Positions 2 to 17,073 of a DNA stretch of 64,000 bases are shown piece after piece; position 1 is the stretch's first letter, and every line of letters begins with the position of its first letter. The stretch is from an uncultured virus (IMG/VR IMGVR_UViG_2831345111_000005) (taxonomy: Duplodnaviria; Heunggongvirae; Uroviricota; Caudoviricetes). The stretch is from IMG/VR virus record IMGVR_UViG_2831345111_000005. One strand, given 5' to 3'. The notes under the pieces were generated by a model. It saw only the letters and a program-made list of their open reading frames with translations. It searched no databases and was not told the origin of the DNA. The position numbers and the translations under genes are program-made.

Positions 2-1576
2 CTGGGTGACGTCGTTGACCGTGGGCCTCAATCCATTGAGACCTTGAAGTTCGTCCGCCAGGCTATAGCGGTTGGGCACTTGATGGTCGCAGGTAATCAT
101 GAGCGCAAATTGCTGCAGTTCTGGGATTCACTCCAGACTGGGGCACCTCGCGCAAATTCTCCATCTGCTGCTGAAACGGCCATGGAGTTCATGAAGCTGC
201 GTGAGGAAGAACAGCAGGCTTTGATTCAGTTTGTCCGAAACCTGCCTGGCTTCTACACTGTGACCGACGGGCCACTCCAGCTTGCGTTTGCGCATGCACC
301 GCAGACGGCTTTTCATCCTTTCACGATTCTGCATTCTGAATGCCTGTATGGCGGGAATGAGTTGCCGGATTATGGCGATGAGGACGCCGACGGGATGTAT
401 GCGGAGAGCTATCGCAGCGGCGAATCACGGCACATGCTTATCCATGGGCACATCCCGTTGACGAGTATGCATCATTGCGTGTTCTCACTGGACGCCCACC
501 AAGCGTTTGCCGGAAACATGCTGGCCTTGCGCCTGGATGGATTCTTGGCTGACTGTCGCGAAAAGATGGCTCAAGAGGCCTTCAATGACAATCTCGTTTC
601 CCAAAAGTGCGAGTTTGACTTCGACGTACACAGCGCCAAGTTTGAACTGAAGCGTTCGCTGGATAAGCTGAAGACCGCCAAGATGGTGACCGTGCAAACG
701 GAGCCGTCGGCCGGCCTATCGCTCTACAAGTATTCGAAGCGTGTGTTTTTCGATGCATTGTGGGGTGAGAGCCCTTATCTCCTGAAGGCTCGCGGTATCG
801 TGCTTGACCTGGCTGGAAACATTGTCGTGCATCCGTTCGACAAGGTGTTTAACTATGGTGAAAACGGTGCCGGTCTCGATATCGCAGACGACCATCCGGT
901 CTACGCGGTTGAGAAGATGAATGGCTTCCTAGGCTGCATCAGTCGCCATCCTTGGAAGAATGAACTGCTGGTGACGAGCTCCGGGTCATTCGACTCGCCG
1001 TTCGTTGACTACATCAAGTCGTTCATCACGCCGGCATTGAAGGGGCTGCTCCTCTCGTACTTCTCGCGCAACAACGTGACGCTCATGTTCGAGGTTCTGC
1101 ATCCGGAAGACCCGCACATCATCCAGTACCGGCCGCAAGACATGGGCCTTTGGTTGATTGGTGGGCGAGGTAAGGAGCAGGGCGCTGAGCCGATAACGGA
1201 AGATGAGTTGGACGAAATCGGGTTGATGTTGACCGTGAATCGTCCGGAGTGGTTCTACACGTCGTTCGGGCAGCTGAAGGAAAAGGTGGCCACCTCCCGA
1301 CTGGAAGGCTATATGGTTCGGGATGCGAAGTCACACAAGACGCTCTTGAAGTTCAAGACGCCTTATTACCTTGTGACCAAGTTCCTCGGCCGTATGAGCG
1401 ACACCAAGGTACGGCACATGTTCTGTCATCCTAAGGGATTCAAGAAGGACATCGATGAGGAGTTCTACCCGTTGGTCGACCACCTGGTCACCACAACCTC
1501 GGAGACTGACTTCTTGGCGCTGCCGGATACAGAACGTGTAGTCCTGGTGCGAGACGCAATTCAAGCACTGCGCTAA
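2..1576 (+). CDS. Metallophosphoesterase - T4 Rnl1-like RNA ligase fusion (Pnkp-like RNA repair enzyme), 5' truncated by window
   Basis: Frame is open from base 2: LGDVVDRG, GNHE and HGH calcineurin-like phosphoesterase motifs; C-terminal ARGIVLD, KVFNYGE, EKMNG (ligase motif I KxNG), FEV, EGYMV, KFK. Confidence 0.85.
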   Translation: MGDVVDRGPQSIETLKFVRQAIAVGHLMVAGNHERKLLQFWDSLQTGAPRANSPSAAETAMEFMKLREEEQQALIQFVRNLPGFYTVTDGPLQLAFAHAPQTAFHPFTILHSECLYGGNELPDYGDEDADGMYAESYRSGESRHMLIHGHIPLTSMHHCVFSLDAHQAFAGNMLALRLDGFLADCREKMAQEAFNDNLVSQKCEFDFDVHSAKFELKRSLDKLKTAKMVTVQTEPSAGLSLYKYSKRVFFDALWGESPYLLKARGIVLDLAGNIVVHPFDKVFNYGENGAGLDIADDHPVYAVEKMNGFLGCISRHPWKNELLVTSSGSFDSPFVDYIKSFITPALKGLLLSYFSRNNVTLMFEVLHPEDPHIIQYRPQDMGLWLIGGRGKEQGAEPITEDELDEIGLMLTVNRPEWFYTSFGQLKEKVATSRLEGYMVRDAKSHKTLLKFKTPYYLVTKFLGRMSDTKVRHMFCHPKGFKKDIDEEFYPLVDHLVTTTSETDFLALPDTERVVLVRDAIQALR

Positions 1577-1643
1577 GCAATAACGCTATACCCTCATGCC
1601 CCGCACATTTGTGTGGGGCGTTTTTCCATCCAAGGAGTACATC

Positions 1644-2316
1644 ATGAAATTAACGCTGGAGATTCGCGCCGCCGAGGGCGGTGAAGATGCCAAGCTCCTG
1701 GTTCATGACCAGGCAGCCATTTATCAACGCTATGCCGCACGTAACGGCATCAAGGCGTCTGTGGAGACACGGGGCCACCTTTGACCTGGTAACTCTCGAG
1801 GGACCAGCAGAAATTCTTGCCATCCTGCGCAATGAGGCCGGCGGCCATCGCTGGCAACGCGTACCTCCGACCGAACGCAAGGGCAGGATGCAAACCAGTA
1901 CCGTCACCGTTGCCGTAATGGAGGGTGAAAAATACGCTCCTTTACAGCTGAATGTGAACGATATCCAGGAGAGAGTAACAAAGGGGACTGGTCCAGGCGG
2001 GCAGAATCGAAACAAGCGATTAACCGCCATAATCCTCAAAGACCGCCTAACCGGTATCGAAGTAAAGGCTGAGGCCGAGCGCACACTTGAAGCAAACCGT
2101 CGAGTGGCCATGGCCACCTTGCGCGAGCGAGTCTTGGCTTATTACGCAGAGCGGGCGGCACAGGCCGAGAACAGTTTCCGCAAATCACAAGTTGGGACGG
2201 GCGCTCGGGGTGACAAGATACGCACTTATCGTGCGGACGGGGTGACTGACCATCGCACAGGAAAAAGAGCGGCATTGAGTTCAGTTGAAGCCGGCAAGCT
2301 TGACCTGTTGCTGTAA
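1644..2316 (+). CDS. Class I release factor homologue (RF1-type PxT motif, GGQ, lacks domain 1), made by predicted +1 frameshift at 1779-1785; about 223 aa
   Basis: AAGGAG RBS, ATG 1644. Frame 0: LEIRAAEGGEDA...RGHL-stop. +1 frame: DLVTLEG...EAGGHRWQRVPPTERKGRMQTSTVTVAV...GPGGQNRNK...GDKIRTY...VTDHR. The joined product is colinear with RF1 domains 2-4. Confidence 0.88.
1770..1785 (+). promoter_or_regulatory. prfB-type programmed +1 ribosomal frameshift site
   Basis: CGG GGC CAC CTT TGA C versus E. coli prfB AGG GGG TAT CTT TGA C; SD-like G-run at the same spacing. Confidence 0.85.
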
Positions 2317-2318
2317 AG

Positions 2319-2343
2319 AAAAAGCCCGCAATCGCGGGCTTTT
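2319..2343. terminator. Bidirectional intrinsic terminator
   Basis: AAAAA-GCCCGC-aatc-GCGGGC-TTTT between convergent genes. Confidence 0.75.
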
Positions 2344-2350
2344 GAGTGTG

Positions 2351-2707
2351 CTACCAAACTTCCTTCTTGCGTAATGGTGTTCCCACTGGGGCATACCCAT
2401 AAAACGGGTCAAACTGGCCTTCTTTTGACTTGAACCGCAACCGCTTTCGCACCATGACAGGAATCGCCATTTCAGCAGGAATGACGGCGCGAATAGACCC
2501 TGCAGAATTAACAAACTCTCTCCCTGGCTGGCTTCCGTATTTGTCATAAGTCACATAGGTGATATGCCAATAGTCGCCAGGTTGTGAAGGTTGGATACAA
2601 CTTAGCACTTCAAAGAAAACGTCGCCACAATGTGACGTCGTCTGAATGAAGTCACCCGGTTTCAAGCCAGGAGGGTAGTAGCCGTTGGAACGACTTAGCT
2701 CTAACAT
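2351..2707 (-). CDS. Hypothetical protein
   Basis: 118 aa ORF with GGAGG RBS, downstream of 2716-3501. Confidence 0.6.
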   Translation of the reverse strand: MLELSRSNGYYPPGLKPGDFIQTTSHCGDVFFEVLSCIQPSQPGDYWHITYVTYDKYGSQPGREFVNSAGSIRAVIPAEMAIPVMVRKRLRFKSKEGQFDPFYGYAPVGTPLRKKEVW

Positions 2708-2715
2708 GCTGCCTC

Positions 2716-3501
2716 CTAGGTGCCGTTGTGAATCAGAATGTAGCTGAGGTCGTTCTCGCGAGCATCTGCGAGGACCGGCACCAGCTTTTCCGGGATGTCC
2801 TTGTAAGTCCGGCTCATATTGAGCATGAACTCCCAGACACCCGCACCCTTGCCATTGTCACGGTGAGCATAGCTTGCGTTTTCCTGCACCCAGGCCCACT
2901 CAGGTGAAGCCTCCGGTTCAACGTCCTCACCGAGGATGTCGCTCATGGAGATGTCTCCAATCGTGGACTTGTTACCTGCGTTGAAGATGGGTTTTGTTTC
3001 AGGCGCTGCCAGTCCGGTCAATTCAAGTGCCTTGAGGGCCACTCGATTCCCGGTTGACGCCGCATTCCGCACAAAAGACAAGGCTGCCGCATCATCTGGA
3101 AAGCTATCTTCATCGTCATCACGCTGAAGGCTCAATACAACCTTGCCGTCGACGATAGTCTCGAACAAGTCCCAGCCATCGGCTTGCGCGGCCGCAGAAT
3201 CGGCAGTCGTCCAGCACAGTGTCTGCAGATACTCCAGCGCTTCCTCGATGGTTTCGTGATAGCGGCCTTCTCCAGACTCTGCGAGGTCAAACGGCACATC
3301 GCTGTGGTACTCAACCCCATCCCAACTCAACCCAAAGACCTGCCCATCCAGACGCTCAACGAGGGTGACCTCGCCTTCCCAGCCTAGCTCGTAGGCCAGG
3401 TAGTTATTGGTACCAGGCTCATAGGGATTCAGCTTGGGAATGCCGATGCCGCTTGCTTGTTTTGCGTTGTCGACGATGGTGTTCAATGCTGCGTTGCTCA
3501 T
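2716..3501 (-). CDS. Hypothetical acidic protein
   Basis: 261 aa ORF, AAGGAG RBS. Confidence 0.7.
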   Translation of the reverse strand: MSNAALNTIVDNAKQASGIGIPKLNPYEPGTNNYLAYELGWEGEVTLVERLDGQVFGLSWDGVEYHSDVPFDLAESGEGRYHETIEEALEYLQTLCWTTADSAAAQADGWDLFETIVDGKVVLSLQRDDDEDSFPDDAAALSFVRNAASTGNRVALKALELTGLAAPETKPIFNAGNKSTIGDISMSDILGEDVEPEASPEWAWVQENASYAHRDNGKGAGVWEFMLNMSRTYKDIPEKLVPVLADARENDLSYILIHNGT

Positions 3502-3602
3502 GATTTCTCCTTGGTTAATGTTTCCTAATTACTGCGTTGAAGTATAGGGAGCATCCTTCCTATACGAAGGAGTAGGAAAATCGACAATCAGGAGGAAAAA
3601 TC

Positions 3603-3785
3603 ATGCAAGCCGTAAGGACTACACTACCCCTTAAGGAGCAGTGCTGGAATCAAGTAAGAGCGGTCATTGAGACCGAAGGCCCAGGGACATCAGTGCAAAT
3701 CGAATATGAGCAGCTGGCTGCTTCTTATGGCGACGCCCCCAATGACCCGGTCTGGGAAGAATTTGCGCAAGCGCTTGCCCAGTAA
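3603..3785 (+). CDS. Small hypothetical protein
   Basis: 60 aa, strong AGGAGG RBS, followed by a hairpin terminator. Confidence 0.6.
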   Translation: MQAVRTTLPLKEQCWNQVRAVIETEGPGTSVQIEYEQLAASYGDAPNDPVWEEFAQALAQ

Positions 3786-3825
3786 CTCAAAACACCTCGG
3801 TTTTCCGGGGTGTTTGTTTATTTGG

Positions 3826-4518
3826 TTAAAAGAACCCGAGTTGCGTGGGCGCGCTTTCCAAGACCAGGCTGACCCCGCCGGCAACCTTGCGCATAATGGA
3901 TTCAGCGATTCTCGCTAGTCTTGGGTGTGAGCTGCAATGCTTCAATTCCTGCACCGCTATGCCGTAGCCAGAGAAGTCTTCCTGAGCGACGCCGTGATGC
4001 CCCATGGAAATGGATATCGTAGGGACGCCCGCATACCGGCTTCCAAGGCGCTCAATGCTCCGGCAGAAGTGCTCAGGGGTTGCAATCCCTTTCGCGAATA
4101 AGGCGCCTGTCTCGTGAGCCAAGGCGATGCGGACAAACACATCTGCCTGGTTCGCTTCGGCGAGACGCATGAATTTTACGATATCCGCTTCGTCACGGGC
4201 GATATTGGCACATTGGATTTCAACAGCCACCCTGGCGCCGGCGACTTCCTTATAGGCATCAGGAATATCGCCAGTCGCCAAAGGATGGCCGACTCGCCAG
4301 CCGTGCGCCTTGAGTTGGGCTGCGAAGAGGGCATTTAAAGCTGGGATGTTGCCAATGTGCTCAGGAAGCTTGGCATAGCCCGGCCACACTGGAAAGGGGA
4401 CTGAATCCACGATGGCGGATAGCTGCTGGAGAATTTCTGCCCGAGGATGCTTGGGGTCCAGCCCGAAGTCCCGAACTTCCAAAATTTGCATTGGATGGCC
4501 GCATGATTTAGAGGTCAT
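3826..4518 (-). CDS. BglII/BstYI-like PD-(D/E)xK-fold restriction endonuclease-like protein
   Basis: PD...VAVEIQ (E-x-Q variant typical of the BglII family), plus LNALF...GW. Confidence 0.5.
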   Translation of the reverse strand: MTSKSCGHPMQILEVRDFGLDPKHPRAEILQQLSAIVDSVPFPVWPGYAKLPEHIGNIPALNALFAAQLKAHGWRVGHPLATGDIPDAYKEVAGARVAVEIQCANIARDEADIVKFMRLAEANQADVFVRIALAHETGALFAKGIATPEHFCRSIERLGSRYAGVPTISISMGHHGVAQEDFSGYGIAVQELKHCSSHPRLARIAESIMRKVAGGVSLVLESAPTQLGFF

Positions 4519-4565
4519 CGTATAGCGTTAATTGATATTTTTTGTAACGAACTTGAAAGAAACAC

Positions 4566-5060
4566 ATGAATCACGACTTTATCGAGGCGCTTCTGCGGGA
4601 GACCCTCACTTTTGCCGACCAGCTGAAGGCTGCCTTGGCCGCTAACCAACCAATCCAGAAGCTCGAGCACACCTCATCCAGCACACACAAGCAGGTCCTT
4701 GTTCTACGCAAGGACCTGAAGATGCGACTTGGTAAATCAGTCGCCCAAGGTGCGCACGCCTCAATAGGCGCGCTGCTCGAGCGAGGGATACGCCTACCGT
4801 CAGCCATCATCATTCCGCTTGATGCCGACATCCGCCCCTGGCTGGACGGACGCTTCAAGAAAATCTGTGTCTCCACCCCGGACGAAGCCTCATTGCTTGA
4901 GCTCTATGCCCAGGCGCAAGCCGCAGGTCTGCCTGCTGCGCTTATTACCGATTCCGGGTTAACCGAATTCCATGGTGTGCCGACGCGCACCGCTTTATCA
5001 ATTGGCCCCGGCGATGCCGAGGCTGTCGACCGCATTACAGGGGGCTTACCGCTCCTCTAA
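4566..5060 (+). CDS. pth2: Peptidyl-tRNA hydrolase type 2
   Basis: KQVLVLRKDLKMRLGKSVAQGAHAS, KKIC, ITDSGLTEF, T.L.IGP...VD.ITG.LPLL. Confidence 0.92.
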   Translation: MNHDFIEALLRETLTFADQLKAALAANQPIQKLEHTSSSTHKQVLVLRKDLKMRLGKSVAQGAHASIGALLERGIRLPSAIIIPLDADIRPWLDGRFKKICVSTPDEASLLELYAQAQAAGLPAALITDSGLTEFHGVPTRTALSIGPGDAEAVDRITGGLPLL

Positions 5061-5116
5061 GTCGATGGCGTCCGGCGGGAAGGGGCTTGCTCCATCTCGC
5101 ACTGAAAGGACGCCTC

Positions 5117-5671
5117 ATGACTGCCATCCTCACGCTCGACCAAGCCGGCCAGCCTAACCGCTGGAGCACGCTTGAAGACGCGCTTTACTACCATCTCAAG
5201 GGACTTATCGCCTGGAGCCAGGGCGAGGACGAATATCACCTTCACGGTGGATACTCCAAGTCTGGACAACGCACCGTTGTTGCGCTCCCCTCCATCATCG
5301 CCGTTCGCAATATCGGCTTTGCCGGCCGGGTACCGCTCACGAATCAGAACCTGTTCTCTCGTGACGACAACATCTGCTGCTACTGTGGCCTGCGCTTCCC
5401 GCGAGGACAGCTCACGCGCGAGCACGTTATCCCGGTAGCACGCGGAGGCCCCAACACCTGGACCAACTGCGCAACCTGCTGCAAGCCGTGCAATAACGCC
5501 AAGGGCTGCATGCTGCCTGAAGAGGCTGGAGTGAAACTGCTGTACGTGCCGTATGCGCCAAATACAGCCGAATCTCTCATCCTGGCCGGCCGCAACATCA
5601 AGGCGGACCAGATGGAGTTCCTACGGGCCTGTCTGCCTCCTGATTCCAGGCTGCTTGGCAGGCTTAATTGA
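5117..5671 (+). CDS. HNH endonuclease
   Basis: LFSRD..ICCYCG...TREHVIP...GG..TWTNCATCCKPCNNAKG. Confidence 0.88.
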   Translation: MTAILTLDQAGQPNRWSTLEDALYYHLKGLIAWSQGEDEYHLHGGYSKSGQRTVVALPSIIAVRNIGFAGRVPLTNQNLFSRDDNICCYCGLRFPRGQLTREHVIPVARGGPNTWTNCATCCKPCNNAKGCMLPEEAGVKLLYVPYAPNTAESLILAGRNIKADQMEFLRACLPPDSRLLGRLN

Positions 5672-5709
5672 TAGAAAAACCCCGTCGAGAAATCGGCGGG
5701 GTTTGAGTG

Positions 5710-6330
5710 TTACAGCGTGTCTAAAATCTCGTCAAACTGCTTGTCGTAATCGCTAACAGCCGGCGAAATCAATGAAGCCAGTCCAATTAAGGCAATTGGC
5801 GTGCTGTCGAATAATGCATACTCATTTTTGAGCAACGCATAGAACTGCTGCAGATGCCCCTCGATTTCACTGGTGGATGACTCATAGAACATCTCGGCCA
5901 GTAAGGCGGAATCAGACTGCTCGAGGCGATTTCCCTGCATAGCCAGCATGCCGTTTATGCGACGGAGCGAAAACGCGAGGGTAGCTAGAAACTCCTGACG
6001 GTCACGAACGCTATCAGGCACCTCCGCTTCAATCAGCACATCAACCGAGCCTTTTTCTAGGCTCACCTCACCAAGCTTGAATTCAAGCGTCCCCTCGCTA
6101 GCTGATGTAGCCAGCTTGAGACTCGCGAGAATTCGGTCGACGACGTAAGCAAAGGCAAGGGGTTTATCCTTGATGCCTGACTGCTCAGGCGAACCGGCCA
6201 AAACAATTTTCCCCAGACCTTCAGTAAAAATCCCATCCAGATAACGGCGGATGCTACGCCCGCAATTCCCTGTCGCATGAGACAGCTCTTCAGCACGTTC
6301 AATCAGATTTTCCAAATTTGCATTCAGCAT
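5710..6330 (-). CDS. Hypothetical protein
   Basis: ORF with AAGGA RBS before ATG 6330. Confidence 0.65.
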   Translation of the reverse strand: MLNANLENLIERAEELSHATGNCGRSIRRYLDGIFTEGLGKIVLAGSPEQSGIKDKPLAFAYVVDRILASLKLATSASEGTLEFKLGEVSLEKGSVDVLIEAEVPDSVRDRQEFLATLAFSLRRINGMLAMQGNRLEQSDSALLAEMFYESSTSEIEGHLQQFYALLKNEYALFDSTPIALIGLASLISPAVSDYDKQFDEILDTL

Positions 6331-6452
6331 AATAGTTTCCTTAAAAATTAATAAAGACCACGATATGTATAGCTGCATTCCAGCCCGCTTCCCTTGACCC
6401 AACATGATATTTATGGTAGATTTACTATATCTCGGTTCAAAGGGGTAACCCC

Positions 6453-6707: not shown

Positions 6708-6806
6708 CCTCTTTTTTGTAGGGATTTCCCTATACTCACAATCTTCTTTATCGCCTGGCCTCCCCGGCCTGTTGAAATGTTCCGTGGGATTTAAGGTTCT
6801 CATCAA

Positions 6807-7733: not shown

Positions 7734-7734
7734 C

Positions 7735-7763
7735 TTGACATTAATAGGCAATTGAAGTATACT
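7735..7763 (+). promoter_or_regulatory. Near-consensus sigma70 promoter for the RNA operon
   Basis: TTGACA-17 bp-TATACT. Confidence 0.85.
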
Positions 7764-7764
7764 G

Positions 7765-7895: not shown

Positions 7896-7898
7896 TAT

Positions 7899-7974
7899 GG
7901 CCCCATAGCCAAGTGGTTAAGGCAGGGAACTTTAAATTCTCCATTCGAGGGTTCGAACCCCTCTGGGGCCACCA
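7899..7974 (+). tRNA. tRNA with anticodon TTA (ochre suppressor, tRNA-Sup), Gln-like D arm and variable loop
   Basis: 76 nt cloverleaf: acceptor GGCCCCA/TGGGGCC + A-CCA; D GCC-AAGTGGTTAA-GGC; anticodon stem GGGAA/TTCTC with loop CT-TTA-AA (7932-7934); T arm GAGGG-TTCGAAC-CCCTC. Confidence 0.92.
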
Positions 7975-7982
7975 GACAAACT

Positions 7983-8013: not shown

Positions 8014-8035
8014 GAGTTTTATCGGCTGAATGAAG

Positions 8036-8358: not shown

Positions 8359-8553
8359 AAACTTCATTGCACGGCGGTAGCTCAAATGGCTTATGGTGAG
8401 GCTGCAGACTTGCTATAAGCACGCTTGACTAAGGCATGGGTGAGCCCACAAGGCCTGTGGAGGTAATCTGTGAACAATTTCTTGCGTGTAGAGCAATCCA
8501 AAGATAATGGAAAGGTCGTTGGTTCGAGTCCAGCCCGCCGTGCAATGAAGTTT
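8359..8553 (+). ncRNA. tRNA-like RNA with a ~100 nt structured D-loop insertion and a 19-bp terminal stem
   Basis: AAACTTCATTGCACGGCGG pairs perfectly with CCGCCGTGCAATGAAGTTT; TA-GCTC-AAATGG[insert]TA-GAGC; TCCA-AAGATAA-TGGA; AGGTC; GTTGG-TTCGAGT-CCAGC; no CCA. Confidence 0.75.
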
Positions 8554-8754
8554 GTTAATTTGTAAATAACAGCACTATACTGAGAACTATGCCTCACTTG
8601 TAAATACATCTCGCGTTAGATTCCTTCGCTTCGGCGAGGAACTCTTTCCATGCCTGGAGCCTGCCTCCAGCTCGTGGTCCGCCATCCCATTCGATGAGCC
8701 TTTTGGCTCAGTTTGCGTCAGTACGACTTAACTTTTATCGAATGGAGATTTGCA

Positions 8755-9117
8755 ATGACCACCACTAACCTCAATACCACCATCCTGACCTCGGACGAGC
8801 GTCGCACGCTTACAGCCGCTTGGAGCGCTTTCCATGCCTCCGGGGAGGCGCGCGCAGAGGATTTCATTCTCTACGCCATCCTTCGAGGCAAGAACCCCAA
8901 GACTGGATTCACGCGCATCACCAACCCCAAGAAGCTGGCAAACGGTCTTCGTGAGTTTGGGGGCTACCAACATGCTCTTGACATGCTTGGCCGAGCCTAT
9001 AAGGGGCCGCTGACTCGCAAGCTTGCTCTATGTTTCCCTGGCCTTCGCGGTGAGCGCTTCAATGAGCTTCTGGATGCCATCTCGGCTGCCATCGAAGCAG
9101 CTCGAAAGGAGGCTTAA
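8755..9117 (+). CDS. Hypothetical protein, first gene of the Pth2-like operon
   Basis: GGAG RBS, 120 aa. Confidence 0.7.
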   Translation: MTTTNLNTTILTSDERRTLTAAWSAFHASGEARAEDFILYAILRGKNPKTGFTRITNPKKLANGLREFGGYQHALDMLGRAYKGPLTRKLALCFPGLRGERFNELLDAISAAIEAARKEA

Positions 9118-9118
9118 G

Positions 9119-9460
9119 ATGCATAAGCCCTACTCATACCTCATGGTGCGTGAAGACATCCCCCTCGAGCACCAGATGGTGCAGTTGGGCCATGCGGCCC
9201 TCGAGGCCGGCTTCAGCTTTAATCGCCCGGCCGAGACTTCCTACCTCATCCTCCTGGCGGCGAAGAACCAGGAGGAGCTGGTTCGCACGGCAGAGGAGCT
9301 CGCGGACCTTGGCATCGAGCATCACATGTTCTATGAGCCCGACTTCGGGCCCATGGGCCACTCTGCGCTGGCCACGAGGCCGCTCTTCGGAGATGAGCGT
9401 AAGCACATGCGGAAATATCGGCTGTACAAGGCAAAACAACCCATGATGGAGACCTGCTGA
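9119..9460 (+). CDS. Second, divergent Pth2-superfamily peptidyl-tRNA hydrolase-like protein
   Basis: YLMVREDI...QMVQLGHAALE...LILL...FYEPD...SALATRP. Confidence 0.65.
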   Translation: MHKPYSYLMVREDIPLEHQMVQLGHAALEAGFSFNRPAETSYLILLAAKNQEELVRTAEELADLGIEHHMFYEPDFGPMGHSALATRPLFGDERKHMRKYRLYKAKQPMMETC

Positions 9461-9461
9461 C

Positions 9462-9959
9462 ATGACGACAAAAATTTACACCCTCATTGCCCTCAAGGAA
9501 GAAAGCCAAAGCTATTGCCGCGGCTGCTTGATGGATACCTATAGCGGAGACTATCAACTCTGGTATGGCCTGGACCGAGACGCGCTTATCGCCAAGATGG
9601 CGGAATTCAAGCTCAAGAATACTGACCTTGGCCATAGTGAATCGGGCTATTCTTTAACAGTACTGATTAACGGTATCCCATGGGATTATTCTGACTACCA
9701 TATTCTCAACCAGCCGGTGGATGTCGATGCTGTCTATGATGCACAAAGTGCATATTCGGAGGAGTTTTCGGAGATAGCCCGACTCGCAAAAGAAGCGGTG
9801 GTGGTACTACAGGCTCAGCAAGCGGAGAAGAAGGCTGAGGCCGACCGCTTGGCCAAGGAGGCGGAGGATGAACGTAATCGCCTGGCTGCAATTGCCAAGG
9901 AGGAGGCTGAGCGAGCCGAGTACCTGCGAATGCAGGCTAAGTTTGGCGCTCGAAATTGA
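9462..9959 (+). CDS. Hypothetical protein with C-terminal coiled coil
   Basis: 165 aa, tightly coupled to the previous gene. Confidence 0.65.
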   Translation: MTTKIYTLIALKEESQSYCRGCLMDTYSGDYQLWYGLDRDALIAKMAEFKLKNTDLGHSESGYSLTVLINGIPWDYSDYHILNQPVDVDAVYDAQSAYSEEFSEIARLAKEAVVVLQAQQAEKKAEADRLAKEAEDERNRLAAIAKEEAERAEYLRMQAKFGARN

Positions 9960-10095
9960 TAGCGCGTTCTCCATCCAAATTCTTCTCCTTGCGAAAAGTA
10001 TAGTTTTTTGATATACTATGATGCGTGGCTGCCATCAGCGGCCACTTATCTACATGGGCCTACCCGGCCCCCTAATTTTCTCTGGAGAAACAAGC

Positions 10096-10632
10096 ATGGC
10101 AGTAATTGACCGCGTTCTGGTGGGCGAAGCCCTGGTTATCGATATGCGAGTGGACAGCAATGAGCTGGACCTCTTGAACGTTGCACATATCGACCTCATC
10201 CTCGGCCCCCGTGGAAGCGCAGCAGAAGAAGCCTTCTGTCGCACCCTGACCGACCAGAAGCAAGGTGTGAACGGCCTCCTGGCTGTTGTTGCACCCAACC
10301 TCATGACCAAGCCGGCCACGGTCATGTTCAACAAGGTCACCATCAAGAACGGCAAGCAAGCTGTTCAGATGTTCGGCCCGGCCCAACGCGGTGTTTCGAT
10401 GGCGGTCATGGACTGTGTCGAAGAAGGTATCATCCCGGCCGCCGAGGCTGACGACATTTTCATTTGCGTGGGCGTGTTCATCGACCACAACGCTGACAAT
10501 GACGAGCGCATTCAGGACTGGAACTACCAGGCCACCAAGCAGGCAATCAAGAATGCGATTGCGCGCTTCCCGTCGGCTGAGCATGTTCTGGAAGAACGCA
10601 AGAAGGCGGCACACCCGTTCGCGGCGAAGTAA
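10096..10632 (+). CDS. fae: Formaldehyde-activating enzyme
   Basis: VGEALV...[18 protein letters not shown]...[29 protein letters not shown]...VGVFI...NYQATK. Confidence 0.92.
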
Positions 10633-10693
10633 CGTAACCCACAAGGGTGATGGTAAAAAAGGGCGGAGATTCCGCCCTTTTGTTCATTGAAAC

Positions 10694-12973
10694 CTAGTTC
10701 TGACAGAGGTAGAAAGTGTAAGTTATAAAAGAGCCTGAAGAATTTCCCGTTTGGTAGGAGTTATATCCTCCTGGGCAGGAGCACGCTCCGGTTTCTGGAT
10801 TAGCGGTACTACAATTAGTCCCCGACATTGCATAAGTCCCCCCAAAACGGCTTGCTGCAGTTCCAGTTGATACCTTCGTCCAAACCCCGCCAGAACAAAA
10901 TACAGGGATGCCATTTGATGTATTAGCCATTGCGCCCGTATTGTAGCCTGCGCAGCTTGCACCGGCTCCGGCGACAAGGGATGGAACGATATTGTTGCCA
11001 TAAATGGCACCGCTCGCATTAATAGCGCCTGAGAAATTTTGCTGGCCAGTAAACGTTTGTGTCGCATCTGTACGTGCAAGGATTGCCGATGTGCTGGGCA
11101 TGGTCATCGTCGTGCCATCCGTGCCAGCCAGGGTTATGGAGTTGTTGACGGTCAAGGTCTTCCTAGTGACGCCTCCCGCAAGACTAAACCCAGTTGAGTT
11201 CTCTACTAGCGACATACCGTTGGCCCACTTGCCTGTGGTTCCGTTATATACAAGAGCTTGCCCGTTTGATGGACTCGTTAGGCTTACATCTCCCATGGTA
11301 GCCAAGCTCGATGCACCAACTTTAGCCCAGGCGCTGCCTGTGTCCCGATAGATTTCGTTAGTATCCGTCGTCATGTAAATGCGGTTTGCCACGCTGGCAG
11401 TTGGCCGGGCAGCCAAAGCCCCTGTGATGCTGGGGCTAGACAGCACCAAATTTCCTCCAGATACAGTCGTTCCGGCTGGCAGGCTCACGCCGCTCGAGGT
11501 CGCACTCAGGACTTGTGTGCCACCAGCGACCAAGCCAAGCGTATTGGCCGATGGCGAATACAATCCCGTGGTCGGGCTACCCGTGAAGGTGTACGCTGGG
11601 GAGGACGTCGAACCCACAGGCGCCACAATCTGCCCAGTCGCCGTCAGGGAGGACGTATTGATACCGCCGTTAGCCGTGATACCTCCGGAGGTCACCAGCG
11701 TCGCCAGCGTACCGTTACGGCTGCCGTCGATAGCCGACGCCCCACCAATCTGGAGGGAGCCTACGTTTGCATATCCAGTCACGGTAGCGTTACCCGCTGC
11801 GATGACGTTATTGATATTGTTGAGGTTGCGACTGGTATCGATGACCGTCGTGCCACCGACCTGAAGACCCCCACCCGCATTCACTACGCCGGAGAATGCC
11901 CCACCATTCGCCGTCACATTCTTGCTGGCATCCAGGAACACGGCGCCGTTGACCGTGACCGTGCCGTCGGTGCCCAGATTGAAGCGTTCAGAGCCACCGG
12001 TCTTAATAGCAAAGCTACCGTTAGCGACGTTAATCAGCATCTTGCTGTTGGTGTTGTCGTAGCCCAGAAAAGCGTTCACCGAAGAGCCGGCCGTGTTGTA
12101 GATATTGATGCCGGTCGTTGAGCTGGTGCCGCTTAGCCCCAGGGCCGTCGCCGAGGCGCCACTATTGATAGTGAGTTTTTCAGCGCCAAGGGTTGTTTGA
12201 CCGATGGCTACGCGGCCACTGGCGTTCGCCATGGTGACGTCGTAAGTACCATTATCAAGCCAGTTCTGGCTGCCACCACTTCCCCCTCCCAGGTTAAGCC
12301 ATTGTTGTTGGCTGGCGCTCCACCGGTACATACGGTTGGTGTCGGTCGTGAGGCGGACTTCACCATCATGTAAGGAGCCTGCACTAAGCCCTTGAAGCGC
12401 GGTTAGTGAGGCTGCAGGCGCGCCCCAGTAGGTCGACGTCGTGCTCGAGGCGCCGGTCGTCACCTGATTGGTCGTCATCCAGAAGGCATAGTCGTCGCCA
12501 CGCACAATGCCTTGCGCTAGGTCTGCGCAAGTCGTCTGAAAGACGTTGTCTAGGCCGTAGGAGATGACCGCCAGGGAGACTGAGCCTGCAGCCGTACTAC
12601 CAGGCAAGCGGCCGCTGCTCGAGGTTAGTGTACCGTTATCCCAGGCGCAATAGCCCAGCGTGCCGCCGAAGCCATCCGTCTTGGGCGCGGAGGAGGTATC
12701 CGGGATGACGCCTCCATCCGAGGTGCCTAGCCCGGTACCCAGCTTCATGGCCGGCGCTTCAATGGTCGCATCATTATCGACGTCGTAGCTCTCAGCAACG
12801 AGCTGATACACCGCCTGCTGCACGGAGGCGTATTGGCTGTTACGGCGAATGGCATCACTCGTAGTATCCGCTAGAGCAGTGTAAGTAACTAGCGCCATTG
12901 AACCGAAAGCAGCCAGCCGGGTCATCCAAACTTTTTCTGAATATTTTTGCATTTTTGGAAACCAAAAAATCAT
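10694..12973 (-). CDS. Large secreted adhesin/fibre-like protein with a PilV/shufflon-like Cys-containing tip
   Basis: Signal-like N-terminus, G/S/T-rich beta repeats, C-terminal C..G.W...FGG.Y....C...NP.TG.CSCP.GY. Confidence 0.65.
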   Translation of the reverse strand: MIFWFPKMQKYSEKVWMTRLAAFGSMALVTYTALADTTSDAIRRNSQYASVQQAVYQLVAESYDVDNDATIEAPAMKLGTGLGTSDGGVIPDTSSAPKTDGFGGTLGYCAWDNGTLTSSSGRLPGSTAAGSVSLAVISYGLDNVFQTTCADLAQGIVRGDDYAFWMTTNQVTTGASSTTSTYWGAPAASLTALQGLSAGSLHDGEVRLTTDTNRMYRWSASQQQWLNLGGGSGGSQNWLDNGTYDVTMANASGRVAIGQTTLGAEKLTINSGASATALGLSGTSSTTGINIYNTAGSSVNAFLGYDNTNSKMLINVANGSFAIKTGGSERFNLGTDGTVTVNGAVFLDASKNVTANGGAFSGVVNAGGGLQVGGTTVIDTSRNLNNINNVIAAGNATVTGYANVGSLQIGGASAIDGSRNGTLATLVTSGGITANGGINTSSLTATGQIVAPVGSTSSPAYTFTGSPTTGLYSPSANTLGLVAGGTQVLSATSSGVSLPAGTTVSGGNLVLSSPSITGALAARPTASVANRIYMTTDTNEIYRDTGSAWAKVGASSLATMGDVSLTSPSNGQALVYNGTTGKWANGMSLVENSTGFSLAGGVTRKTLTVNNSITLAGTDGTTMTMPSTSAILARTDATQTFTGQQNFSGAINASGAIYGNNIVPSLVAGAGASCAGYNTGAMANTSNGIPVFCSGGVWTKVSTGTAASRFGGTYAMSGTNCSTANPETGACSCPGGYNSYQTGNSSGSFITYTFYLCQN

Positions 12974-13082
12974 GTGTCAGAAGTATAGTTAACATCTTGA
13001 TAGCACAAGATATAATTAACTAAGCTATTGACATTGCTTGCTATTTTTGATATACTCAAAAAATACAAAAGGGAGTATAGAA

Positions 13083-13979
13083 ATGTTAACAGTCGCCGTA
13101 AGTAGCCGTGCATTATTTAATCTTGAAGACGGAAATACCATCTTCCAGACGGAGGGATGGGCTGCATTTGACGCCTACATGCGTAAAAATGAGAAGAAGC
13201 CTCTTCGTCCAGGGGTTGCCTTCCCGGTCATCCAGAAGCTGCTTGCCCTCAACATTGAAGGTGCTCCCCGCAAGGTGGATGTCATTCTACTGTCGAGTAA
13301 TACCTTGGATGCGGGCGCTCGCGTAATGAATTCGGTTCGCCATTACGGCCTGAACATCGACCGTGCATTCTTCACTTCGGGTGGCAACCGATTTTCCATC
13401 GCACAAGCCGGTAATGTGACGCTGTTCCTGTCAACCAACCCTGATGAAGTGCGTCGCGCGCTTGACCGGGGCATTGCAAGTGCTTGTGTGCAACCTCATT
13501 CGCACGTAGGCGAGTCTGCGCCTGGCATACGCATCGCGTTTGATGGCGACTCCGTCCTGTTTGATGACTCGGCCGAACGGGTAAACCATGAATCAGGCTT
13601 GGCCGCATTCACGCAGAATGAGCAGAAGCAAGCCAGGATTCCGTTGGGAGCAGGTCCATTCAAGCCTGTATTACAGGCCCTGCAGGAGATTCAGGAGAGC
13701 TACGCCGACGCTGCTGATTGCCCAATACGCGTCGCGCTGGTAACGGCGCGTAGTGTGTCAGCTTATGAGCGTGTTCTGCATACCTTCCGTACCTGGCGGG
13801 TCAAGGTGGATGAGTGCTTCCTGTGCGGCGGCCTTCCGAAAGGACCCTTCCTCGCAGCATTTGGCGCAGACCTGTTTTTCGATGACGGTATGCATAACAT
13901 CGAGTCCGCAGCGCAGTACGTGCCATCGGGCCATGTCCCACACGGCGTCGCGAACCAGGAAATGGCCGTTACCGCATAA
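13083..13979 (+). CDS. 5'-nucleotidase (cN-I-like HAD family)
   Basis: VAVSSRALF, RIAFDGDSVLF, GPFK, ALVTAR, FFDD, HVP.G. Confidence 0.88.
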   Translation: MLTVAVSSRALFNLEDGNTIFQTEGWAAFDAYMRKNEKKPLRPGVAFPVIQKLLALNIEGAPRKVDVILLSSNTLDAGARVMNSVRHYGLNIDRAFFTSGGNRFSIAQAGNVTLFLSTNPDEVRRALDRGIASACVQPHSHVGESAPGIRIAFDGDSVLFDDSAERVNHESGLAAFTQNEQKQARIPLGAGPFKPVLQALQEIQESYADAADCPIRVALVTARSVSAYERVLHTFRTWRVKVDECFLCGGLPKGPFLAAFGADLFFDDGMHNIESAAQYVPSGHVPHGVANQEMAVTA

Positions 13980-14314
13980 CGCATACTCAGCCGCATACCC
14001 ACCGAAGCCCGGCCATCGTGTCGGGCTTTTTCATTTCTACGAGGACGCCTCGGCCCAGCGAGGCCGAGATGGAGATGCTAACACCGCTCGTCCATCCTGG
14101 TTGGACAAAATTGAAGCTAACGCCGAAGGCGGGAAGGTGAGTGATTATCGCGAGGGTTCGGGGTTACGAAATTTGCATCCTAAGGGGGTTTCTGATGCGT
14201 CTTAATAAGCCTCCCATTTGATTTGGGATTACAAACTAGTGATTATAATATGATTACAGGGGTGTAAAATTGCCGTTTTAAATCTAATAATCAGTGACTT
14301 ACAAAATCACTCGC

Positions 14315-14395
14315 CGCCAATTATCCCGCACTTTGCCGCCAATTATCCCGCAGAAGCTCGCCAATTATCCCGCACCTGTCGCCAATTATCCCGCA
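14315..14395 (+). repeat. Four 16-bp iterons (putative oriV) with an AT-rich segment upstream
   Basis: CGCCAATTATCCCGCA at 14315, 14337, 14359, 14380 (period 22/22/21), directly upstream of rep. Confidence 0.85.
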
Positions 14396-14460
14396 CTTAC
14401 CTGCATTCTTTGGTATACTGGTATTATCGAATCGCCTCCGGCTTCTCTAGGAATATCGCT

Positions 14461-15360
14461 TTGCACGAATCAACCGCTGTCGCCGAATTATCGGGCTGGC
14501 TGCCAGAAGTGTTGGCACCTGCCACGCATTTAAGCCCCATTCCGAACGTCCTTGCTCGCTGCTCGATGTTTGCCGCGCGCACTGGTCGAGGTGCGGTAGG
14601 GAAGATAGTCTACAGGAAGCGTACCTTGTTAGCGGCGTATGGTGGCTACGAAATCTGGCAGGAGGCGGGGAGTCCGCATCTTACTCAGGACCATTTGGAT
14701 ATCTGGCTACTCCTCATAAAGGCTTCTTACGATAATCCTTTAAACCAGTCTGATAAAACGGTGACCGTTTCATTTGGCTACCGGGAGATGCTCCGTCACC
14801 TCGGTAAAACCGGAGGCGGCGCGGATATGGCTTGGCTGCGTGACAAGCTTACTGAAATGCGTATGGCTACCTACCGAATCACCTGCGGTGAGCAATTGAC
14901 GGTGACGGGTCTGGTTCATAAATTTACCCAGTCCCCAGGCGAGGATGGCCGATACGAGGTTCTGTTGGATGCTGAGCTCCGCAACCTTTTCTCTGCTGGG
15001 TGGACGCAACTCAATCTGGCGCATCGTCTTGCGCTGGCAGGTCGCACAAGTGCTCACGTCCTGGCGCAGTGGCTTCACGCGTTCTACTCAACCCATCGCT
15101 CACCTGTGCCTTTGGGGACACAGAAAATTCAGATGCTGTGCGGGCGGGCCGAGATGGAAGCGGGTAAATTCAATAAGCTCCTTCAAGAAGCCATTGAGCA
15201 TATCAACAATAGCACCATTGGGTGGAAGTGCGAGGTTAACAATGGGGTGGTATCCGTGAAAAAAGGAAGCCACACAAAATTAGCGCAGCGCGCTGGCCAC
15301 GAAAAATCTTCGAGGCCTAGGTATGATTTAGTGGCAGAAGAAGACGAGGAAGATATTTAA
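14461..15360 (+). CDS. TrfA-like plasmid replication initiator (start uncertain: TTG 14461 or 14410)
   Basis: IPNVLARCSMF, LTQDHLDIWL, LAQWLHAFYSTH; adjacent iterons. Confidence 0.75.
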   Translation: MHESTAVAELSGWLPEVLAPATHLSPIPNVLARCSMFAARTGRGAVGKIVYRKRTLLAAYGGYEIWQEAGSPHLTQDHLDIWLLLIKASYDNPLNQSDKTVTVSFGYREMLRHLGKTGGGADMAWLRDKLTEMRMATYRITCGEQLTVTGLVHKFTQSPGEDGRYEVLLDAELRNLFSAGWTQLNLAHRLALAGRTSAHVLAQWLHAFYSTHRSPVPLGTQKIQMLCGRAEMEAGKFNKLLQEAIEHINNSTIGWKCEVNNGVVSVKKGSHTKLAQRAGHEKSSRPRYDLVAEEDEEDI

Positions 15361-15413
15361 TCTTCACATGTTGCATATTTGAAGTTTAGTGATATACTTG
15401 TCTTGTTCGGATA

Positions 15414-15608
15414 AGGATGGGTTCAGCACTTTCATTTCTGACAAATGGCTTGCCGGGGCACCTTACGTGGACTAAAACTCTCCCGTAAGGACCGAAACCT
15501 CCCGCTTGGGGACGCAATCCTGAGCTAGTTGTGTGGCACGATAGCCACTCCCTTCCAGGCAGGTAGCCTTGGACGACCGAACCGGAATAGCCTTAGGGCA
15601 CCATCCTG
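15414..15608 (+). ncRNA. Structured RNA upstream of the Ro60-like gene (Y-RNA-like candidate)
   Basis: Extended -10 TGATATACT at 15390-15398; terminal stem AGGATGG/CCATCCT with an adjacent unpaired TTCAGCA; inner GGCT..CCGG/CCGG..AGCC stem and several hairpins. Confidence 0.55.
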
Positions 15609-15666
15609 TAAGCGGAGCCAGTTACACTGGTTCCGCTTGATTCTCTCCCTCAGCGATTAAACTCTT

Positions 15667-17073
15667 ATGCGGAAAACATTAAACGGCGCAGCTACATTCA
15701 AGACATCAGGCTCAGCCTGCCTTGACCTGTTCTCCATGATTGGAGCGGCACGCCGTCATCCCGCACAGCTTATTCAACTCTTTGAGCGTGCCCTGCGCGA
15801 AGACCAGGCGCTTGCCTTGCGTATCCTCCTGTGGTCGCGTGACGCCCGCGGAGGGGCGGGTGAGCGAGACACCTTCCGCAACGTCCTGCATTGGCTTGAG
15901 CGTAAGCGTCCAGAATTAGCGAGAAAGCTCATTGCCTCCTGGATTATTCCGGAGGTTGGCCGCTGGGATGACGTCTTAGGTGTAGCGACACCGGAACTGC
16001 GGGCCTTGGTCGCAAGCCAGGTAGCGCTTGTTTTAGCAGGCTCCATGGAAGCGTCACCTGACAGGTTGGCAGCTAAGTGGATGCCGCGCTCTGGCCCGGT
16101 CGCAGCTTGGCTCTGTAAGGCCCTTGGTATTTCCGAGGCCCAGTGGCGAAAGGGATTGGCCAAGATTTCCGATACCGTCGAGCAGCAAATGTCGGCAGGC
16201 AAGTGGAGTGGCATCCGCTATACCGCAGTCCCGTCTGTCGCGGCAACCCGCTATCAAAAGGCTTTTGCGCGCCACGATAAGCGCTATGCGACCTACATCG
16301 AGGACGTTACAGCGGGTAAGGCAACCATGCATGCGGGAGTGGTGTTCCCGCACGATGTTGTTAAGGCAAGCGCTGTGCATGATGCGGCAGCGACTGCGCA
16401 GTGGACGCAATTGCCCCGTCCTGCTATTGCAGGCAAGGCGCTGGTGCTATCTGATGTATCCTCGTCAATGATACGGCGTATTGGCGGCAATACCCTCGCA
16501 ATCGAAGTCTCCATTGCGCTTGGCCTGTTGCTTTCAGAAGCGCTGCCTGAGCCCTTCAAGAATAAGGTCTTGATGTTCTCAGCCCAACCAGAGTTCCACA
16601 CGGTGAAAGGCAATACGCTGCATGAGCGTGTAACCAATCTCACCAGCGGGATGTGGAGCATGAGCACCAACATACAGGCTGCTTTCGATAAAATTCTCTC
16701 GATGGCACGAGAAGCCGGCGCGGGGTTCGAGATGCCAGAAGCACTCATCATCCTCTCCGACATGGAGTTCGATGAGGCAGACGCCAAGGGATGGACAAAC
16801 TTTGAGGTCGCACGCAGGAAGTTTGAGCGGGCTGGCTTTAAGATGCCGTTAATGGTGTTCTGGAACCTGGCGGGCAGAGCCGGCAATGCCCCTGTGCGCG
16901 CCAATACCCCTGGTGTTGTTTTGTTGTCAGGATATTCCCCTCGTATTCTGGACGCGGTCCTCGCGGGAAACTATGAGCAGCTCACCCCAACTATACTGAT
17001 GCGTCAGGCCGTCTATATAGCACGGTACGACATTCCAGGGTTAACCATCCCGACAAAGTTAATCCTGACGTAA
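15667..17073 (+). CDS. DUF2828-family, Ro60/TROVE-like protein with a C-terminal vWA domain
   Basis: RDARGGAGERDTF, GRWDD, AAKWMPR, MIDAS DVSSSM, STNIQAAF, ILSDMEFD, FWNL, SGYSP. Confidence 0.8.
   Translation: MRKTLNGAATFKTSGSACLDLFSMIGAARRHPAQLIQLFERALREDQALALRILLWSRDARGGAGERDTFRNVLHWLERKRPELARKLIASWIIPEVGRWDDVLGVATPELRALVASQVALVLAGSMEASPDRLAAKWMPRSGPVAAWLCKALGISEAQWRKGLAKISDTVEQQMSAGKWSGIRYTAVPSVAATRYQKAFARHDKRYATYIEDVTAGKATMHAGVVFPHDVVKASAVHDAAATAQWTQLPRPAIAGKALVLSDVSSSMIRRIGGNTLAIEVSIALGLLLSEALPEPFKNKVLMFSAQPEFHTVKGNTLHERVTNLTSGMWSMSTNIQAAFDKILSMAREAGAGFEMPEALIILSDMEFDEADAKGWTNFEVARRKFERAGFKMPLMVFWNLAGRAGNAPVRANTPGVVLLSGYSPRILDAVLAGNYEQLTPTILMRQAVYIARYDIPGLTIPTKLILT

Follow-up and report, generated by a model that had tools for sequence, protein, structure and literature searches.

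Within 17 kb at the start of the uncultured-virus record IMGVR_UViG_2831345111_000005 lie genes predicted to act in tRNA repair, translation termination and peptidyl-tRNA recycling, which raises the question whether they form one system or several. The stretch analysed (64,000 nucleotides (nt), referred to below as the window) corresponds to C7:66213-130212, that is, to part of contig C7 within a 3.69-Mb assembly. A preliminary description had read these genes as one plasmid-borne module by which translation continues when ribotoxins or abortive-infection systems attack. The evidence presented here points instead to at least three independent units, namely an RNA repair enzyme, a release factor gene gated by a +1 frameshift and an operon gated by a suppressor tRNA, which occupy the downstream end of a translation island carried by a plasmid-like replicon. 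Taken as a whole, this explanation (replicon edge with separate repair, frameshift-factor and suppressor-gated units) is in our judgement moderately probable. The features that carry the argument are the following, in window coordinates:

1..1576, plus strand: 3' 524 codons of a gene (C7 65575-67785 in full) for a kinase-phosphatase-Rnl1 fusion protein of 737 amino acids (aa); Pfam AAA_33, Metallophos and RNA_lig_T4_1
1596..1621, plus strand: terminator-like hairpin (11 pairs, 7 of them GC) with T run, between the ligase and release factor genes
1644..2316, plus strand: short gene for a predicted RF1-type release factor, frame 0 at 1644-1781 and frame +1 at 1783-2316; joined product 223 aa, without domain 1
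1771..1785, plus strand: +1 frameshift cassette, consisting of a G-rich Shine-Dalgarno (SD)-like GGGG (1771-1774), a 4-nt spacer and CTT TGA C
4566..5060, plus strand: canonical peptidyl-tRNA hydrolase of the Pth2 family, extended by 41 aa at the N terminus; Pfam PTH2 99.3 bits (cut-off 23)
5087..5671, plus strand: HNH endonuclease; Pfam HNH_5 and HNH
7735..7763, plus strand: promoter-like site before the UUA tRNA, TTGACA-17-TATACT, 11 of 12 matches
7899..7974, plus strand: tRNA with anticodon UUA (ochre suppressor type), called by ARAGORN; Rfam tRNA 66.8 bits
7983..8011, no strand assigned: two-way terminator-like hairpin past the UUA tRNA, from a terminator scan
8364..8552, plus strand: tRNA-like element with a 14-bp closing stem, T-arm GTTGG TTCGAGT CCAGC and a branched insert of ~100 nt
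8589..8768, plus strand: leader, ATG CCT CAC TTG, TAA (8601-8603), 54 open codons and TAA (8766-8768)
8674..8694, plus strand: anti-SD segment in the read-through frame of the leader, containing GGTCCGCCA (8676-8684)
8755..9117, plus strand: 120-aa open reading frame (ORF) of no family, first gene of the gated operon
9119..9460, plus strand: protein of 113 aa with a predicted Pth2 fold, 49 homologues (the Pth2-like gene)

Probably independent units within 17 kb

The units have promoter-like sites of their own, and opposite-strand genes intervene between them. The ligase and release factor genes, which had been described as directly adjoining, are both real, but the hairpin at 1596-1621 that separates them ranks first among the terminator-like sites of positions 1-17100. 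Conservation of the neighbourhood was assessed in 22 related factor loci (designated by L numbers), 16 from IMG/VR and six from genomes, L024 and L025 being near copies of each other, and in a census of 45 IMG/VR loci with a Pth2-like gene. When 20 proteins or protein parts of the region were compared by tblastn with the 16 viral factor loci, only Pth2 (L017) and the Pth2-like gene (L014) were found near the factor, and the same search against the six genome loci returned only a homologue of the HNH protein. Pfam matches at 6 kb or less from the factor in 15 loci (a scan that took in 180 of the 196 ORFs in that range) included RNA_lig_T4_1 once (L015), PTH2 once (L017) and vWA_Ro60 once (L019). 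Homing endonucleases were present in five factor neighbourhoods, and capsid or baseplate genes lay beside the factor in L026-L028. Genes for tRNAs occurred 10 kb or less from the factor in 9 of the 16 viral loci, with a transfer-messenger RNA (tmRNA) gene in one more, and in one of the six genome loci; in L101 the factor lies inside a 31-tRNA array. Judged by its neighbourhoods, the factor travels with tRNA arrays and not with the ligase, and the gene-neighbourhood check suggested by the preliminary description did not reveal the co-occurrence with ligase, Pth2 or Ro60-like genes that one module would entail. Genes for tmRNA called by ARAGORN, several of them permuted, were also observed at most a few kb from either the Pth2-like module or the factor in L039, L045, L046, L047, L064, L071 and L020.

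Viewed from the other gene, the factor was located 4 kb or less from the Pth2-like gene in 3 of the 45 census loci. It was present in two of ten large records with the Pth2-like module (two of the seven that were at least 90% complete), ~175 kb away in one and ~1 kb beyond the locus in the other, and the Pth2-like profile matched three of five large records that carry the factor. The frameshift factor and the suppressor-gated operon were, we conclude, inherited largely apart.

The reading in which ligase, factor, both Pth2 genes, ochre tRNA and a DUF2828 gene act as one module to sustain translation under attack gains from their position within 17 kb and from their common theme, and this theme of tRNA repair, termination and peptidyl-tRNA recycling recurs in relatives. 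It gains further from L045, L047 and L064, in which factor, tmRNA, suppressor tRNA and Pth2-like gene all lie within 4 kb, from the single occurrences of Rnl1, Pth2 and Ro60-vWA genes near the factor, and from a DUF2828 gene 2 kb from the Pth2-like gene in L053. Factor and Pth2-like module were found within 4-5 kb of each other in those three loci, in L014 and in one further record, which speaks against fully separate units, and some linkage of the two may exist. One module is nevertheless clearly unlikely in view of the terminator and the opposite-strand genes between the units, the presence of each partner in only one of 15 factor neighbourhoods, the scarcity of the factor in module records (two of ten, or two of seven complete ones), the lack of any PADLOC defence model matching the core genes, and the family of the factor, which is not PrfH.

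A release factor gene with a proposed +1 frameshift gate

The factor gene starts at 1644, 68 bases past the end of the ligase gene and after an AAGGAG site. Frame 0 stops at TGA (1782-1784), immediately behind CTT (1779-1781), and the +1 frame continues to 2316; joined by one four-base step across CTT TGA C (1779-1785), the 223-aa product carries RVPPTE (the PPT motif) and GPGGQ (the GGQ motif), so that the frameshift-gated factor of the preliminary description is borne out. The best curated match was NCBIfam RF1 with 174 bits (cut-off 400), covering profile positions 106-334 of 347, and lower scores were obtained for RF2 (89 bits), PrfH (TIGR03072; 44.3 bits against a cut-off of 166.65) and ArfB (24 bits). 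Because RF1 is the best match only over these positions, and RF2 and PrfH score lower, the predicted factor is RF1-like and without domain 1. It is not a full-length RF1, and the ligase gene, which ends at 1576, leaves no room upstream for domain 1. The residues Q-R-V-P-P-T-E and T-S sit at what we take to be the decoding positions of RF1. Factors with a PxT motif are expected to read UAA and UAG, as RF1 does, and not UGA.

A CTT-stop +1 site was retained in 18 of the 22 relatives (13 of 16 viral and five of six genome loci), the identity of which to the factor drops to 37%. The stop codon at this site was TGA in 17 and TAG in one (L022), and relatives with the site have a G-rich SD-like run 1-4 nt before CTT. 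In the remaining four, the reading frame passes one or two in-frame TGA codons, and three of these four have 30-41% G+C; such codons may represent either a TGA-sense code or a read-through gate. Two in-frame TGA codons each were counted in L015 and L016 and one each in L014 and L100, the first of them near the position of the shift site in other relatives. Less favourable to a uniform RF1-type activity are the tripeptides PPN, PPG and PEN, which replace PPT in some relatives (L017, L102, L103 and L104) with GGQ and the shift site kept; the codon specificity of the short factor family may therefore differ among its members. The closest relatives of the C-terminal part of the factor (63-73% identity) were located on Burkholderia and Paraburkholderia contigs of 423-640 kb, as were several relatives of the Pth2-like gene, which hints at a family of very large replicons bearing both genes.

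The prfB gene of the host contains AGGAGG TAT CTT TGA C and the host 16S anti-SD is normal, so host ribosomes should be able to make the +1 shift. The factor would be made only when ribosomes slip +1 at CUU UGA C. Because a PxT factor should not read UGA, the gate would sense host RF2 and not its own product, and synthesis would rise when RF2 is slow. Extra RF1-type capacity would add termination at UAA and UAG, which would suit a replicon in which TAA and TAG terminate 80% of genes (~62% in the host). For these two codons the factor, behind its UGA gate, would compete with the UUA tRNA, and the RF1-type motif together with the shift site favours this part of the preliminary description.

The cassette shares with the +1 frameshift of prfB (RF2) the CUU UGA C site, the upstream SD-like run and a class-I factor whose remainder lies in the +1 frame. 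It differs in that the protein is predicted to be RF1-like (PPT, best match RF1) and devoid of domain 1, and in position, since the prfB shift site lies early in domain 1 and the site in the window at codon 46-47, in domain 2. Whereas prfB is autoregulated, control in the window would come from host RF2. The gate of L022, CTT TAG, presents a codon that a PxT factor could read. In the portion of the survey PMC12421855 available to us, autoregulatory frameshifting is known for prfB and none for prfA, and TAG is not observed at the prfB shift site.

A short class-I factor without domain 1 beside an RNA ligase also recalls the RtcB2-PrfH pair, and on these two grounds the factor could be taken for one that, like PrfH or ArfB, rescues ribosomes independently of stop codons and works with the ligase. 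The profile scores place it under the PrfH cut-off and nearest to RF1, and the decoding motifs, at the positions we take for RF1, are kept. The neighbouring ligase belongs to another family (Rnl1-type, not RtcB), RtcB was not found among the 22 ORFs of positions 1-20 kb, a terminator lies between the two genes, and their pairing is not conserved in relatives. A rescue factor is accordingly a very unlikely reading.

A Pth2-like operon behind a proposed stop-codon gate

The UUA tRNA, which confirms the ochre tRNA noticed earlier, has a 7-nt anticodon loop (CU-UUA-AA) and an encoded CCA. A close parent was absent among the 91 other tRNAs of the assembly, the top identity being 68%; in the D-arm its core resembles host Gln tRNA, and its identity to the suppressor tRNAs of relatives ranges from 42 to 68%. 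Downstream, the leader opens with four codons before its first TAA, and its read-through frame stops 9 nt beyond the ATG (8755) of the 120-aa ORF. Within this frame, positions 8674-8694 pair with the SD sequence GGAG (8744-8747) and with 8757-8762 (pairing probabilities 0.86 to 1.0), and the leader region has a fold z-score of -3.85. The 9-nt core GGTCCGCCA is also present in the short leaders of L064 and L073, and the leader closest in form is that of L046, which has the same long form with TAG in place of TAA.

Weak homologues of the 120-aa ORF precede the Pth2-like gene in 11 loci. The Pth2-like gene itself starts at 9119, one base past the stop of the preceding ORF, and not at 9023 as first described; the second Pth2-like gene is otherwise real. 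Its PTH2 score of 17.8 bits falls short of the Pfam cut-off (23). In a search with a structural model built from 31 homologues (predicted local distance difference test, pLDDT, 89.5), the ten best PDB matches were all Pth2/Bit1 chains, with template-modelling (TM) scores of 0.67-0.76. On the strength of this model, the product of 9119-9460 has a Pth2 fold.

A suppressor tRNA lay 4 kb or less from the Pth2-like gene in 28 of the 45 census loci, with anticodon CUA alone in 24, UCA in two, CUA together with UUA in one, and a 'ctaa' call in one. An in-frame stop 1-9 codons past the ATG of the Pth2-like gene was found in 20 of the 45 loci and additionally in L014, and a leader minigene 414-489 nt upstream in 18 of 23 other loci scanned. 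The leaders of relatives consist of an SD sequence, ATG, 1-6 codons and a stop, followed either by 6-7 codons and a second stop or by a long open stretch; the segments of 6-7 codons mostly end in Pro or Ser. Stop codon of the gate and anticodon of the tRNA agreed in 25 loci (23 TAG-CUA and two TGA-UCA) without any disagreement; L037 and L042 are outside this count, and one of the 23 TAG-CUA loci (L038) has its gate in the upstream gene. L064 pairs TAG with the tRNA called 'ctaa', and the window supplies the TAA-UUA case of this covarying pair. Of 17 relatives that were folded (the window was folded separately), nine had the right start codon and were used, and in all nine the SD window of the next gene, wherever its bases are paired, has its partners in the read-through segment.

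Anatomy and conservation together suggest the following mechanism. The UUA tRNA would compete with release factors at the TAA of the four-codon leader. The anti-SD segment, which would keep the ribosome-binding site and the start codon of the 120-aa ORF closed, would be traversed by read-through ribosomes alone. Read-through would thereby turn on both this ORF and the Pth2-fold hydrolase. The signal may be either how much charged suppressor tRNA is available or how fast termination proceeds. Our guess for the hydrolase is that, when read-through is high, it most probably removes peptidyl- or aminoacyl-tRNA or keeps its level down. Translational attenuation by leader peptides (for example, erm, cat and secM-type leaders) shares with this arrangement a short upstream ORF and a hairpin hiding the next ribosome-binding site that is opened according to ribosome position. 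In the window, however, the signal would be stop-codon read-through by a suppressor tRNA of the element itself rather than a ribosome stalled by a drug or by the peptide it is making, and the gate codon covaries with a tRNA anticodon.

Three observations weigh against a gate of this kind in the window: the leader ATG has a weak SD sequence (GAGA), compared with AAGGAG-type sequences in relatives; an open stretch of 54 codons is expected by chance in an estimated ~7 of 100 cases; and TAA ends 60% of the genes of the replicon, which would make efficient ochre suppression expensive. On C7, TAA-gated gene starts show no enrichment (35, compared with 33 for TAG and 51 for TGA). Since TAA is such a common stop codon and these starts are not enriched, an efficient suppressor with many targets is disfavoured.

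The same figures bear on whether the DNA carries a code-switch module of the kind proposed for recoded phages, in which the tRNA would reassign TAA for late genes and the factor would tune termination. Suppressor tRNA and release factor do match the make-up of the 'code change module' of such phages, as given in the part of bioRxiv 10.1101/2021.08.26.457843 consulted. The standard code already gives a coding density of 89%, to which reading TAA as sense adds little, TAA is the commonest stop, and the TAA-gated starts show no excess (the full list of in-frame stop pairs on C7 contained too much noise to be of use), which makes code switching highly improbable. The two reading frames of the factor gene and the lack of a close tRNA parent might suggest that both genes are functionless products of decay or of faulty assembly. 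This is barely credible given a shift site and SD-like run kept in 18 of 22 relatives at identities down to 37%, the intact GGQ and decoding motifs, the 66.8-bit tRNA with promoter-like and terminator-like sites of its own, and the covariation of gate and anticodon types.

The tRNA-like element is flanked by a promoter-like site (8293-8332) on one side and by the gated leader on the other; its branched insert replaces the D and anticodon arms, and it has neither CCA nor G3:U70. Its fold has a z-score of -4.35, and none of 200 shuffled sequences was equally stable. ARAGORN at default thresholds made no tRNA or tmRNA call and Rfam gave no match; with intron options or a lowered score threshold, ARAGORN returned implausible calls only. 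Two tRNA mimics had been reported: this element stands, and a second was absent from a T-arm and acceptor scan of positions 1-20000. A loose scan for split tRNA-like elements across all loci was swamped by chance matches. The element might serve to direct processing of the mRNA of the operon. A second minigene (8546-8584), with its ATG inside the stem of the element, was observed just upstream of the leader; it consists of ATG and five codons, TAA, five codons and TGA, has the same TTG TAA ATA gate, and its TGA lies 4 nt before the leader ATG (8589). Two gates in series may thus precede the operon.

Relatives in cultured phages

By tblastn, the Pth2-like gene was detected in 28 phage records, where it was often unannotated or annotated too short; among them were GAP32, CBB, Serratia phage BF, Yersinia phage fHe-Yen9-04, Acinetobacter phage ME3, RsoM2USA and XacN1. 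The GAP32 homologue starts ATG GCA CAA TAG, and in XacN1 ATG AAG TAG stands in frame before ORF364. Xanthomonas phage XacN1, a standard-code jumbo phage, thus shares suppressor tRNA, Pth2-like gene and gate with the window; it differs in tRNA and gate (CUA and TAG, against UUA and TAA) and in being a virion-forming phage, whereas the carrier here is plasmid-like with a transfer apparatus. In the portion of PMC5852040 consulted, XacN1 is given two CUA tRNAs and no identifiable target for them.

The predicted RNA repair enzyme and the canonical Pth2 and HNH genes

The fusion ORF begins 637 nt outside the window, at C7 65575, and its AAA_33 domain is of the polynucleotide kinase type. The family phrog_8238 covers the protein nearly end to end (residues 11-692 of 737), and the kinase-phosphatase-ligase fusion is therefore an existing family (PHROG 8238). 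Kinase, phosphatase and Rnl1-type ligase form the set of activities with which phage T4 repairs tRNA cut by anticodon nucleases, and by its domains the single-chain enzyme would likewise heal and seal broken tRNA. It resembles T4 Pnk plus Rnl1, and bacterial Pnkp, in these three predicted activities; it differs in having all three in one chain. Its phosphatase domain is a metallophosphatase, a type shared with bacterial Pnkp, and the bacter_Pnkp profile gave only 50.6 bits (cut-off 750).

The canonical Pth2 gene (4566-5060), reported earlier together with the HNH gene and likewise found here, also matched NCBIfam arch_pth2 (TIGR00283) with 90.3 bits (cut-off 82). The HNH endonuclease that follows it is probably of the homing type. 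Homologues with 49-54% identity are situated immediately 3' of the Pth2-like gene in seven loci, and it looks like a homing endonuclease aimed at this neighbourhood. More broadly, homologues with 46-54% identity (L030, L031, L041, L046, L067-L069 and L101) were observed to adjoin Pth2-family genes or to occupy tRNA arrays, and the seven Pth2-like loci with an HNH gene had no suppressor tRNA within 4 kb.

The replicon

Contig C7 comprises 225 kb and has a G+C content of 0.541, compared with ~0.57 for most contigs of the assembly; C8 (108 kb) matches it in G+C content and in stop-codon usage. On these two contigs, TAA, TAG and TGA account for.60,.20 and.20 of stop codons, as against ~.42/.20/.38 in host contigs, so that the TGA frequency on these plasmid-like contigs is about half that of the host. 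Pfam matches revealed an F-type transfer apparatus (TraC, TraE, TrbI, TraF, TraH, TraG_N and TraN) and a TrwB-type coupling protein (E 1e-111); C8 carries TraU, TrbC, ParA and ParB. Mating-pair apparatus and coupling protein, as in conjugative plasmids, are both present, and two further genes within the window are of plasmid character:

14410..15360, plus strand: candidate TrfA-like replication initiator; Pfam TrfA 26.3 bits (cut-off 22)
17121..18344, plus strand: actin-like (ALP/ParM-type) segregation protein; Pfam ALP_N 97.9 bits

Terminase_6N (PF03237), Phage_portal (PF04860) and Phage_capsid (PF05065) had no match anywhere in the assembly, and terminase, portal and major capsid genes were not found among the ORFs scanned on C7 and C8 either; the capsid negative rests on PF05065, as the search with PF07068 (Gp23) was uninformative, its control being silent.

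Two findings complicate a plasmid assignment. TrwC, Relaxase and TraI_2, the three relaxase families searched, had no match in the whole assembly, and many genes of C7 best match jumbo-phage families, with two glycine-rich ORFs matching tail-fibre adhesin profiles. The jumbo-phage family matches on C7 include ribonucleotide reductase, both topoisomerase II subunits, thymidylate synthase, polymerases and a primase, and further PHROG matches of this type are RIIA, CCA-adding enzyme, RecJ and PhoH. C7 had been considered a jumbo phage on the basis of PHROG matches, a candidate dropped after the F-type transfer genes and ParAB were seen and the virion families searched gave no match. The replicon may be a phage-plasmid, given its jumbo-phage-type genes and the ORFs with adhesin profiles. 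With these reservations, the plasmid-borne setting of the preliminary description holds: C7 is probably a large plasmid-like replicon with an F-type transfer apparatus, to which C8 is probably joined.

An array of 38 tRNAs (C7 46308-64681), directly preceded by the coupling protein gene, lies just ahead of the window and covers 19 amino acids, Tyr alone being missing. One array tRNA (C7 57416-57491) was called with a four-base anticodon (tgat). Megablast of positions 1-17073 against plasmids and phages gave no matches, positions 7700-9500 were held by none of 60 related genomes, and a metagenome scan returned only four distant loci.

Other genes of the window

The remaining genes of the region and of the window that were assigned to a feature are:

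9462..9959, plus strand: 165-aa ORF of no family, directly downstream of the Pth2-like gene
10018..10632, plus strand: homologue of formaldehyde-activating enzyme (Fae); Pfam Fae, E 3.5e-65
15667..17073, plus strand: DUF2828/DUF7788 protein, by Pfam and phrog_850, a family common in phages
37236-38180: MYG1
38286-39749: PIN-PhoH

The Fae homologue closes the same-strand run after the Pth2-like gene and is an odd neighbour for translation genes. The DUF2828 gene had been called Ro60-like: the DUF2828/DUF7788 assignment is upheld, but neither TROVE nor vWA_Ro60 matched the protein at E up to 1, a PDB search by sequence came back empty, and BLASTP against a phage Ro60-vWA protein gave E 0.1. An Atlas search returned solely its own family, which is frequent in phages and in some clusters resembles vWA over its C-terminal part, and a literature search on DUF2828 found nothing relevant. 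The structured RNA proposed upstream of this gene is a weak candidate: region 15361-15680 has a fold z-score of just -2.19 (2 of 100 shuffled sequences were as good) and no Rfam match at E up to 1, and no evident likeness was seen by eye among the upstream regions of six DUF2828 homologues, folded separately and unaligned. MYG1 and PIN-PhoH are present as reported.

Three further observations concern other parts of the window. A 5'-nucleotidase (13038-13979) matched the PADLOC candidate PDC-S08 (E 2e-110), and a DUF5131 protein (18472-19416) the candidates PDC-M41B and PDC-M30B (E ~1e-65). On the minus strand, a two-partner secretion (TPS) pair (24567-29710), made up of a 1222-aa TPS/MBG-repeat protein and a ShlB/FhaC-type transporter, is located next to a FecR-like gene.

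What the two devices may mean

In the literature searched, with supplements outside the search, no description was found of either device, the RF1-type frameshift gate or the suppressor-gated Pth2-like operon. Arrays of tRNAs on megaplasmids are already in print. The window adds the ochre form of the gate, the anatomy of a long leader with its pairing, and a setting on a replicon with a transfer apparatus.

Among release factor genes, prfB is regarded as the one with programmed frameshifting, and the available part of the PMC12421855 survey records none in prfA. A conserved RF1-type gene with a prfB-like cassette elsewhere in the gene, at a codon that its product should not read, would represent an independent origin and control by a host factor. 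A cognate gate before a gene for a Pth2-fold protein would give the suppressor tRNAs of standard-code phages, for which none had been known (as in XacN1), a target, and the presence of both devices on a replicon with a transfer apparatus indicates that this jumbo-phage-type toolkit is not confined to virions.

The two devices could be combined in a two-channel termination homeostat, in which the UGA gate would measure the speed of RF2 and set the RF1-type factor, and the TAA leader would measure termination capacity and set a Pth2-type hydrolase that recycles tRNA from failed termination. We consider this proposal rather unlikely as it stands; if it were true, the suppressor tRNAs of standard-code jumbo phages and megaplasmids would be sensor parts and not decoding parts.

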